Sequence record: NZ_OW849084.1
DNA: 40,203 nt
Source: a plasmid
Strand: one strand, 5' to 3'
Shown: positions 18,001 through 21,000 of the stretch, in pieces
Layout of the letters: every line of letters starts with the position of its first letter
Numbering within the stretch: position 1 is the stretch's first letter
Position numbers: made by a program

Positions 18001-21000
18001 GGATGCCGAGCTTGTTTTTTACGACTCCGGGCGGGTTGAAGCCTACGACGGACGCGAGGACTACGGGGAAGATCGTTGGGCAACGATTGGGCTTGCCTAC
18101 TCGGCTGTCCTGTATGTGGTCTACACCGTCCGACACGAGGAAACCATCCGCCTTATCTCTGCGAGGAAAGCAAATGCCGACGAAAGAAAGCAATATCGTG
18201 AAGCGAACTCTTGACCTCAAGAAGCCGCCACAGTTGAGCGCCGAGCAGAAGGCGCGACTGGATGCCGTGGCCTCGATGCCGGATGAGCAGATCGACTATA
18301 GCGATGCACCCTATCTGCCTGATGCTGTCTGGATGAAGGCAGCGGAGCAATTGCCCCACACCAAGAAGCAAATCACGCTGCGCATTGATGCCGAAGTGTT
18401 GGAGTTCTTCAAGCACACCGGCAAGCGTTATCAGTCGCGCATGAATGCTGTTTTGCGCTCCTACGTTGAGGCGCACAAGGCGCACGCGAAATGAGCGGCG
18501 ACGACAAGCAGCTTGAGCTTGAAGCCCTCGCCGCCGTGGGCGAAATGCTCTTGTTCGACCAAGCCAGAGGCAACCCGGAAGAAGCCGCCCGCATCCTGCG
18601 ATGTGCGCGGCTTTTTGCTCGTTCAGAGGATGCCGCGCAGCGTCTCAGCGAGCTATGCAACGAGGCGGGCAGTGATGCGACTTGGCGCGAAAACATCGTG
18701 GAGGAACTGCAAGACCGAGAGGACTTGCAAGCCGCCGAGGCAGCGATGGAAGCCCGCCGACAGGCCCAACTTGTTGCGCAAGCGGATAGTGCCGACACGG
18801 CCTTGCAGACCCTAATGGACGAGGTAGCGGCGGACACCTTCGGCAGTCTCGATGAAGGATATGCGGCACAGGCGCAGGCCGAGGCCGTGAAGGCGTGGCA
18901 GGGCAGGCAGTGAGCGGCATTTGTTGGTGTTTCATCGTAACCCGGCAAGTGTTCAGCAAACGGTGGTTTGTTGGACAGTTGCCGCAAGGGGCGGTTTTTG
19001 TCATTTTCAGAAGACGACTGCACCAGACAACGCGGTTTGAAGGCTGTTGTGCAGTCGTCTATTGAACGAACAGTATCAGGAGTCCGCTGCACGAATGATA
19101 ACCTCAAGCCGGTTCTGGTCGCGCTGGCGACCGATCAGCCCCTGGATGGGGACGGTAGAGAAAACGGACAAAATCGTACGCTAAGCATGCGGCCTGTCAG
19201 GTTGAGGCCATAGAGTTTGACGTTTAGGCGTCAGATAATGCAGAAAGCGGCCCTAGTCTGACGCGATGCCAGTGAGCCGACTGACGCCCAGTTGAGGTAT
19301 AGCCTAGATTGACATGCGCGATGCAACCCTTAACTTGCTTGCACCTATCGTTTCCATGCTAGCTTTATCGTAACGCTAAGGAAGCTCTGAAAAAGCCCAT
19401 GTTTCGCGAAATCACCGCTCTGTAACCCGCATGGTTGCTGGGATGCATTTCTCGAGCGGGGGCTTTTTCAGACCTTCCTTAGCTTAGCGTACGATTTTTT
19501 CCGAATTCTGCGGTTCCCCCTGGAAGACCTACGCAAGTTGGGCCAGCTCAGAGGTGGAATCAACGAAGGCGAGCGAATGAGGCATCTTTTCTGGCGTCTT
19601 AACTTTCTCCTTCTCTCCGGGGCAACAAACAGCGCCCAGATGTACCATGAGGCCGCCGCTCTTTCCTCCGAGCTGGATACTCGTTGGTCTTACCGCTCCA
19701 AAGAGCTTATGACGCTCTACAGCAAGGCGAAATCCTATGAGGCTGGGGAACGTGTCGAGTTCGGCGGAAAGTCGTTTGCACCGCTATACACGCCCAAAAA
19801 CGACACGCTGATCAACCTATTCCAGATCTCACAGCAAGAACAAGAGCAACTGAAGACGATTATCAGCACTGACGAGGCTCAGAAGCGCCGCAGAGAGCGC
19901 GATAGACTGCGTGATGAAGAACGTCGCCGCGCCGCTGGCCAGCTTGAGCGTGAAGCCTATGAAGCCAACTCATTGAGCAGGCAAAAGCCCTGGGAAGCTA
20001 TGGGCATGAGCCGGGCTAAATGGTATCGCCTGGGCAAGCCTTCACCTCAACAAAACAGTGAGACAAGTCCCTCCCCTATTACTAATGGCGAAGCCTCAGC
20101 GGTTGCCCTTCAGGCGGCCAGGTGTAAAGCCGTTTAGATGGCTATTTCAAAGTGAGTGAGATTTCGTAACGGATGGCAGCCCTAGAGGCTGCTTTCTTTT
20201 GAGGGGTTAGCAGGCGTATAGCCATGCTGGATCTCAGTCTATCACTACCTGCTTAATATTCCACCTTTAGATCCGGCAGCAGTTCGACCAGGTGGCCAAC
20301 TTACCAGGCACCGGCAGCAGCTCGACCGGGTGGCCAAGTTCAGATCTGGACGCCAGAAGGAAATCAACCAGGTGGCCAACTTACCAGGCACCGGCAGCAG
20401 CTCGACCAGGTGGCCAAGTTCAGATCTGGACGCCAGAAGGAAATCAACCAGGTGGCCAACTCACCAGGCATCGGCAGCAGCTCGACCAGGTGGCCCATTT
20501 CGTACGTACGAAATCAGGCGACGCTATGCGAAATCTTGGCGGCAATCCCCCGCGACTACGTGATTTTTTTAACGTAGAGCGCGCTTTTTCTTGCCATAGT
20601 AGGCCATTTTGGCCTATAATCTTAATTAAGAAGACCGGGCACCCGCCACGGTCAATACCGGAGAACTCCGATGATCCACACAGCTAACCGCACCTTTCAC
20701 CAACTCTATCGAGAATGGATACGCGAACGCCGCGAGCATATGCACAACGTTTTGACCTGGGAGCGTGATCGTTACGGTGCTCGCCTCGTCGGTCTGTTTT
20801 ATCGTTACTGCAAGGTGGCCAACCCCTTTCCCCGTTGCACTCTGAATACTCGGATCAACTACCGCGCCCATGCGGTGAATCTGCCAGATTGGCCAGCCCG
20901 CAGCCTGGAGCTGAATAAAATGTGGCTCAGTTGGAGAGAAAAAAAGTAGGCCGATTTGGCCTATTTTTTATTGTACCCGCTTGACACAATAGGCCAAAAT

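Follow-up and report, generated by a model that had tools for sequence, protein, structure and literature searches.

A tandem repeat array was examined in a 40,203-nucleotide (nt) stretch of plasmid DNA (sequence record NZ_OW849084.1; the whole stretch is hereafter called the window), where it lies downstream of a truncated rep paralogue, delta-repB, on an IncP-6 plasmid. The array is very probably a contracted copy of DR2, the block of r1 and r2 direct repeats found downstream of repB in IncU plasmids of the RA3 type; in its native setting it acts in cis as an accessory, origin-proximal element, while here it is a passenger and most likely a non-functional relic. The assignment to DR2 was based on the oligonucleotide sequences printed for RA3 (PMC9455977) and on comparison with other IncU plasmids. 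As the DR2 block is already known, only a small addition is made here, namely the explicit link between RA3 DR2 and the passenger segment of KPC plasmids, and its significance is modest.

The repeat array and its relationship to IncU DR2

Tandem Repeats Finder placed the array at 20287-20495 with a period of 80, 2.6 copies, 97% matches and a score of 397; the same tract could alternatively be read as period 38 with 5.7 copies. The core CCAGGTGGCCAA (at most 1 mismatch) starts at 20288, 20326, 20368, 20406, 20448 and 20486, with a spacing that alternates between 38 and 42 bp, and the array, counted in whole units, spans 20271-20492. The main features described in the first-pass annotation were all recovered, including (i) six phased copies of a core sequence; (ii) their position downstream of the truncated rep, whose stop lies at 20137; and (iii) an AT-rich stretch and the first KorC-type operator (TAGGCCATTTTGGCCTA, 20600-20616) after the array. 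A seventh match to the core, with 1 mismatch, was detected at 20811, inside orf02 and outside the array. The seven matches in the whole window compare with 0.21 expected, and none of 100 shuffles reached this number. When the region was scanned with the published r1 and r2 oligonucleotides, the units were found to abut with zero gaps as a truncated r1 followed by r1-r2-r1-r2-r1:

20271-20294, plus strand: truncated first r1, 24 nt; holds the first CCAGGTG|GCCAA junction; the same degenerate r1 is full-length in the native IncU plasmids L003 and L004
20295-20332, plus strand: r1 unit, 38 bp; 2 mismatches to RA3 r1 oligonucleotide #41 (PMC9455977)
20333-20374, plus strand: r2 unit, 42 bp; 0 mismatches to RA3 r2 oligonucleotide #39 (PMC9455977); contains a BglII/GATC site
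20375-20412, plus strand: r1 unit; 1 mismatch to the published r1 oligonucleotide
20413-20454, plus strand: r2 unit; 0 mismatches to the published r2 oligonucleotide
20455-20492, plus strand: r1 unit, last of the array; 1 mismatch to the published r1 oligonucleotide

Just past the last r1 unit lies a SnaBI site (TACGTA, 20503-20508), which in RA3 marks the edge of DR2 (PMC9455977). An assembly artefact, a condition under which the first-pass annotation would have withdrawn the array, is excluded because the 601 bp around it were matched at an identity of at least 99% in 391 plasmid records, with the full-length top matches, among the matches listed, all 100% identical. The same r1 and r2 units are also present in native IncU plasmids. 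Altogether, 814 plasmid records matched the array region, mainly from Klebsiella and also from Pseudomonas, Citrobacter, Aeromonas and others.

In RA3 (Kulinska et al. 2008; Markowska-Barkic et al. 2022, PMC9455977), the replication module has the order DR1-repA-repB-DR2. Within its 557-bp DR2, r1 (38 bp) and r2 (42 bp) units are arranged as [(r1r2)3r1]2, and DR1 has the structure (r3r1)3r3 with an r3 of 60 bp (PMC9455977). In both sequence and position the window array agrees with this DR2 block. Its units differ from those of RA3 by 0-2 mismatches and follow the same alternation, (r1r2)n r1, head to tail; the array likewise comes after repB, the repB terminator and an AT-rich region and has the same SnaBI-marked edge; and the same KorC-regulated orf02p region and the same orf02-klcA-korC genes lie downstream. 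The window differs from RA3 in that (i) 5.6 units are present rather than 14, with the first r1 cut to 24 nt; (ii) the cognate repA, the 5′ 55% of repB and DR1 are missing; and (iii) korB is absent, which leaves the flanking promoters with KorC control only.

An identical arrangement, with the r1-r2 block between the 3′ end of IncU repB and the orf02p/KorC operator, was found in the native IncU plasmids L002-L005 and L012. The native context was seen in four small plasmids, comprising IncU plasmids of Edwardsiella, Citrobacter and Klebsiella together with the IncX3/IncU plasmid pKP13d, in which the gene order is HigA-like RepA, 459-amino acid (aa) RepB, array and orf02-klcA-korC-kfr-korA-incC-korB. 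By direct blastn, window 19520-22232 was colinear with IncU plasmids at 95-98% identity and matched pKP13d at 99.7-99.8%; pKP13d retains intact repA-repB and (r1r2)5r1 and has blaKPC-2 beside korC. The suggestion in the first-pass annotation that the array came from the parent replicon of delta-repB is therefore upheld, the parent being of the IncU/RA3 type and the array part of its extended origin region.

The number of DR2 units varies widely, with 14 in RA3, 15 in L004, 11 in pKP13d, 7 in L003 and 4 in L005, compared with 5.6 in the window and 3-4 in some KPC plasmids (r1r2r1 in L007; r2r1r2r1 in L008). In a 60-record sample spread over the matches, about 49 records had the array length of the window and about 4 non-Tn4401 blaKPC-2 (NTE-KPC) records were contracted. 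The array is most likely drifting by slipped-strand or recombinational contraction; the native range is 4-15 units, compared with the 5.6 seen here and the 3-4 of some KPC plasmids.

Upstream of the array, the IncU-derived DNA consists of the following elements, for which RA3 coordinates were mapped through L003 (L003 = RA3 + 484):

19520-20137, plus strand: delta-repB, the 3′ 618 bp of IncU repB (RepB residues ~255-459), without start codon context or promoter of its own
20058-20095, plus strand: partial r3 core (GTGAGACAAGTCCCTCCCCTATTAC + TAATGGCGAAGCCT), putative RepB-binding iteron and key element of the minimal origin (oriV) in RA3 (PMC9455977)
20142-20270, no strand assigned: repB-DR2 spacer, corresponding to the 'AT-rich region' of RA3 oriV; near-identical to L003 1869-1997 and mapped via L003

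The delta-RepB open reading frame (ORF; 19538-20137) has 99% protein identity to residues 261-459 of IncU RepB (L003). An apparent divergence of the delta-repB 3′ end from IncU was rejected as an artefact of joining repeat pieces, blastn being colinear from 19520. The 25-bp r3 core at 20058-20082 lies inside the 3′ end of repB, at the same location as in native IncU L003 (1785-1809), and differs at 1 of 25 nt from the middle portion of the r3 units (60 bp) in L006 DR1. A terminator-like hairpin for repB (20175-20193) followed by a T run was located inside the spacer, and a repB terminator construct covering RA3 1353-1509 has been listed (PMC7414963).

Published function of DR2 and the question of iterons

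The role of DR2 in RA3 has been addressed by deletion and complementation in P. putida with RepB supplied in trans (PMC9455977). The partial r3 at the end of repB was barely enough to replicate, addition of the AT-rich region improved replication, and addition of DR2 in cis raised origin efficiency at least 10-fold further, while DR2 without the repB 3′ end did not replicate; the RA3 fragment 746-2082 works as an oriV under these conditions (PMC9455977). The original 2008 minireplicon was made of repB and these repeats, and the working derivatives listed include one whose DR2 has been shortened to r1r2r1 (PMC9455977). The 218 bp past the SnaBI site carry orf02p and the leftward promoter orf02prev, both repressed by KorC and KorB; when this region is lost, compensatory mutations that increase RepB expression are selected (PMC9455977). 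The orf02prev RNA, about 700 nt long, runs through DR2 and extends as far as RA3 1449 but stops short of 1366; the authors propose that it activates the origin and found no ORF expressed from it (PMC9455977). These two end points map to about 20206 and about 20123 in the window, an interval that brackets the hairpin at 20175-20193.

On this basis native DR2 is an accessory, cis-acting element close to an origin whose minimal form is the partial r3 plus the adjoining AT-rich DNA; by the RA3 results, it does not titrate RepB or cause incompatibility in trans. The KorC/KorB-repressed orf02prev transcript, for which a role in origin activation is proposed, traverses DR2 before ending at the AT-rich region. 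Since r1 and r3 have a 16-bp 3′ end (GCAGCTCGACCAGGTG) in common, DR2 probably serves as an architectural or auxiliary loading region. A candidate model in which a G-rich transcript opens the origin through an R-loop was rejected, with a GC skew over the array of about -0.05. DnaA boxes were not found in 20000-20650, and their count over the whole window was below chance.

The first-pass annotation had favored a different reading, in which the array supplies the iterons of the parent (IncU) replicon or determines its incompatibility; such an array would bind RepB and could titrate it or handcuff origins. This reading draws on the position of phased direct repeats beside a rep gene, the 3′ end that r1 has in common with r3, the at least 10-fold effect of DR2 in cis and the composition of the 2008 minireplicon, yet the RA3 experiments count against it. 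When carried on a high-copy plasmid (pAMB6.28), DR2 showed no incompatibility toward miniRA3-1, whereas every r3-carrying fragment (DR1 and the repB 3′ end) reduced co-existence with miniRA3-1 to <1%, and the authors assigned r3 as the putative RepB-binding iteron (PMC9455977). The minimal oriV, moreover, does without DR2, and DR2 can be cut to r1r2r1 in a working derivative (PMC9455977).

A survey of the RepB family agrees with these experiments. The region around the rep stop was scanned in 29 RepB-family loci, most of them at 61-72% identity and two encoding a RepB identical to that of IncU, from Pseudomonas, Halomonas, Oligella, Ectothiorhodospira, Macromonas and many metagenome-assembled genomes. 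With few exceptions, the loci for which sequence was available were found to carry 1-3 copies of an r3-like motif, AAGTCC-N5/6-TATTAC, between about -134 and +277 relative to the rep stop and always on the rep strand. The r1/r2 core was confined to true IncU loci (DR1 and DR2) and their KPC-island descendants; it was not found in this 29-locus scan at the RepB-family loci of 61-72% identity, apart from a single stray match in L015, which lies about 2.4 kb downstream of rep and on the other strand. By its distribution, r3 behaves like the conserved Rep site of the family and r1/r2 like a lineage-specific accessory, and the iteron role in the RepB family would belong to the r3-like sites.

Iterons of classical theta plasmids (RK2, pSC101 and R6K) are typically 17-22 bp. 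DR2 resembles them in consisting of direct repeats beside a rep gene within the origin region; however, its units are twice as long and of two alternating kinds, and DR2 exerts no incompatibility in trans, is dispensable for the minimal origin and is not conserved in related replicons. Taken together, an iteron or incompatibility function for r1/r2 appears quite unlikely. The comparison with origin regions of related replicons that the first-pass annotation had proposed was in part favorable, as the array does belong to the IncU origin region, while r1/r2 are absent from the relatives of 61-72% identity, in which r3-like sites are kept. We suggest that the repeats be annotated as IncU DR2 (r1/r2) rather than as iterons or a second incompatibility locus. 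The part of the relic that corresponds to an iteron is the r3 core within delta-repB (20058-20095), which is similar to the r3-like sites in the IncP-6 replicon of the plasmid itself.

The latter resemblance was examined across the window. The motif AAGTCC-N5/6-TATTAC occurs exactly four times, compared with 0 expected: at 1345, 1392 and 1439, at the 3′ end of or just past the functional IncP-6 rep, and at 20065 in delta-repB. In addition, both 1450-1469 and 20076-20095 carry the identical 20-mer TATTACTAATGGCGAAGCCT. The first-pass annotation had stated that the array is unlike the repeats of the functional rep, and the present data concur: the element common to both replicons is the r3 core and not the array. 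IncP-6 Rep and IncU RepB are 68% identical over residues 1-401, with no alignment beyond about residue 401; the C-terminal region that is diverged between the two carries a weak helix-turn-helix signal. The two replicons also have different central bases and a different spacing within the motif, namely CCTCCCC with N6 versus CATGCG or CGTCCG with N5. It was also observed that the r3-like site overlaps the codons of the Rep C-terminal tail.

Downstream of the IncP-6 rep, a 17-bp tandem repeat, GTAGCGCCTGCCTTTGA, was detected at 1481-1524 in 2.6 copies. The same repeat is present in 26.6 copies in C. freundii OW848790 (L010), in which the rep region is otherwise 100% identical, and in 6, 11 and 12 copies in p10265-KPC, pCRE3-KPC and pCOL-1, respectively, where it is called 'iterons' in IncP-6 KPC papers (PMC7096625). 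Like DR2, GTAGCGCCTGCCTTTGA follows the r3-like sites at the rep 3′ end of a paralogous replicon and is very variable in copy number; its sequence and unit length are unrelated to those of DR2. The notion that the window rep is unlike other IncP-6 rep regions was rejected as an artefact of the copy number of this 17-bp repeat, as the rep region is 100% identical.

State of the relic and alternative readings

No intact IncU RepB, RepA or KorB is encoded in the window. Because the cognate initiator is thus missing, the array is most likely inert. Several points weigh against this assignment or qualify it. The abstract of the RA3 study describes DR1 and DR2 as 'of unknown function' (PMC9455977), and the functional account of the window copy is carried over by analogy from RA3. 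As the incompatibility test was run against miniRA3-1, in which a repA mutation raises RepB expression, weak titration could have been masked. Furthermore, the relic is nearly co-extensive with RA3 746-2082: it starts at about nt 763 of repB and keeps the r3 core, the AT-rich region, 5.6 DR2 units and orf02p, such that it may fire if RepB is supplied and its inertness is conditional. Firing is plausible where an IncU plasmid co-resides.

Taken further, the delta-repB-DR2 segment could be a complete cryptic IncU origin, with r3 core, AT-rich region, DR2 enhancer and KorC-gated promoter, that fires or sequesters initiator in the presence of any RepB-family initiator, whether from a co-resident IncU plasmid or the resident, 68%-identical IncP-6 Rep. 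We consider this unlikely. If true, it would imply altered copy number, unexpected IncU/IncP-6 incompatibility, or cointegrates and blaKPC-2 spread, for a segment matched in about 800 plasmid records, most of them NTE-KPC; an origin that can be activated in trans would have a bearing on KPC plasmid copy number and compatibility. The narrower proposal that the relic is still active because the resident IncP-6 Rep recognizes its r3, with the relic serving as a second origin or Rep sink and DR2 as its enhancer, seems decidedly improbable. The near-complete retention of the RA3 oriV fragment, the AAGTCC...TATTAC motif and TATTACTAATGGCGAAGCCT common to both replicons, and the equation of IncU with IncP-6 in the RA3 paper (PMC9455977) are consistent with it, but the central bases and spacing of the motif differ, the Rep C-terminal regions with the weak helix-turn-helix signal are unalignable beyond about residue 401, the same relic resides in IncF, IncR, IncX and other plasmids with unrelated Reps, and a sister plasmid with the same backbone lacks the segment. 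Recognition of the relic by the resident IncP-6 Rep is conceivable, though unsupported.

This sister plasmid, pMHW-1 (L011, NZ_CP091429.1), is a near-identical IncP-6 KPC-2 plasmid from hospital wastewater that lacks exactly 19522-22779, from which it follows that this segment is dispensable for the IncP-6 backbone; pMHW-1 offers a naturally occurring deletion against which any function of the relic can be judged. The missing piece extends from delta-repB to beyond korC, and an insertion of the IS21 family was observed elsewhere in pMHW-1.

The first-pass annotation had also raised the alternative of a centromere-like site, acted on by IncU KorB/IncC or by IncP-6 ParG/ParA. Phased repeats at the border of a stability module would suit such a site, as would the unexpected stability of the RA3 minireplicon in E. 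coli, the reasons for which were left unexplained (PMC9455977). On the other hand, no copy of CCAGGTGGCCAA lies near parA-parG-parC (38746-40047), the sole match outside the array being the one in orf02; the window lacks the IncU partition genes; DR2 is given no partition role in the RA3 study; and the RA3 centromere is placed at the border of maintenance and transfer, judging from the title of a reference in that study (PMC9455977). The partition alternative was thus not sustained and is very improbable. Even less credence, close to none, is given to a repeat protein, a structured RNA or an assembly artefact as the explanation of the array. A mechanical ORF of 131 aa (20292-20687) does span it and the orf02prev RNA, which is non-coding, covers DR2 in RA3, yet a period of 80 bp is not divisible by 3, Pfam gave no match for the ORF, no expressed ORF was found from orf02prev (PMC9455977), the array has no Rfam match and its minus-strand fold was not significant (z = -1.5), while conservation in 391 records speaks against an artefact. 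A contracted, passenger DR2 remains the reading that we prefer.

The KPC-2 passenger segment and its surroundings

The fragment comprising delta-repB, r3 core, repB terminator, DR2, the orf02p/KorC operator, orf02, klcA and korC very probably reached the IncP-6 plasmid as one colinear piece of IncU origin, and it travels with the non-Tn4401 blaKPC-2 island. The structure 'korC-orf6-klcA-delta-repB' has been described as a passenger of the non-Tn4401 blaKPC-2 platform in pKP048 and p10265-KPC (PMC7096625, among numerous reports). The window has exactly this structure in the IncP-6 form of the p10265-KPC type, with delta-blaTEM-1 and ISApu1/ISApu2. In pKP048, the order is tnpA/tnpR of the Tn1721 type, array, 92-aa ORF, klcA, 51-aa ORF, korC, blaKPC-2 and ISKpn27. 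The KPC literature searched differs from the present description in that only genes are listed, the repeats being unnamed and no link to RA3 DR2 being drawn, even in the one paper within that search that mentions blaKPC, korC and RA3 alike.

The 5′ half of IncU repB was found in about 98 plasmid records, and approximately half of those sampled hold only a separate 5′ remnant of 615 nt. When compared with the 814 records that match the array region, this indicates that the repeats are now far commoner as a relic than in the native replicon. The first 615 nt of IncU repB were observed, unannotated and at 99.5% identity, in many large plasmids of Klebsiella, Raoultella and Citrobacter, and the IncU rep has thus left both 5′ and 3′ fragments in clinical plasmids. 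A remnant of about 60 bp of the delta-repB 3′ flank with the r3 core was noted beside IS26 in C. freundii pRHBSTW-00342_2 (L009, 3955-3972), an IncF plasmid without a KPC island. MOB-suite typing (via PLSDB) assigns 'IncU' to NTE-KPC plasmids that carry delta-repB only (L001, L007, L008 and L010), including IncF/IncR and IncP-6 plasmids, and the label accompanies pKP048, HKC1 unnamed1, p2075-1 and an IncP-6 plasmid. The 'IncU' typing of NTE-KPC plasmids is probably a systematic false positive of replicon typing, apparently triggered by the delta-repB relic in many KPC plasmids that lack an IncU replicon.

Downstream of the array, the IncU-type module was found to include the following features:

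20591-20620, plus strand: orf02 promoter, TTGCCA-18-TATAAT, overlapped by the KorC operator palindrome at 20600-20616
20671-20949, plus strand: orf02, 92 aa, first gene of the IncU stability module; WP_013213990 / WP_011191304 at the same place in NTE-KPC and IncU plasmids; no Pfam match
21060-21485, plus strand: klcA, antirestriction gene; Pfam PF03230, E 9.5e-27
21814-22110, plus strand: korC, placed from the pKP048 annotation and named KorC in L005; no Pfam match

KorC represses orf02p, orf02prev and klcAp in RA3 (PMC7414963, PMC9455977). The leftward orf02prev of RA3 lies in the same region of about 200 bp and transcribes across DR2 (PMC9455977); in the window it was not detected by a promoter consensus scan at the threshold of that scan. 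Three palindromes of the KorC-operator type, TAGGCC-N5-GGCCTA, were observed at 20600-20616, 20947-20963 and 20990-21006, compared with 0.07 expected. Apart from these features, a period-20 tandem repeat, AGGATGAAACTTTATTTCAA, was noted at 12166-12221, within the IncP-6 backbone and close to where an ORF ends (2.8 copies, 75% matches). The promoter and leader regions of orf02 and klcA (20540-20675 and 20930-21065) were found to be duplicated, with identity over the last ~45 bp to the ATG, a duplication that matches one noted for RA3.

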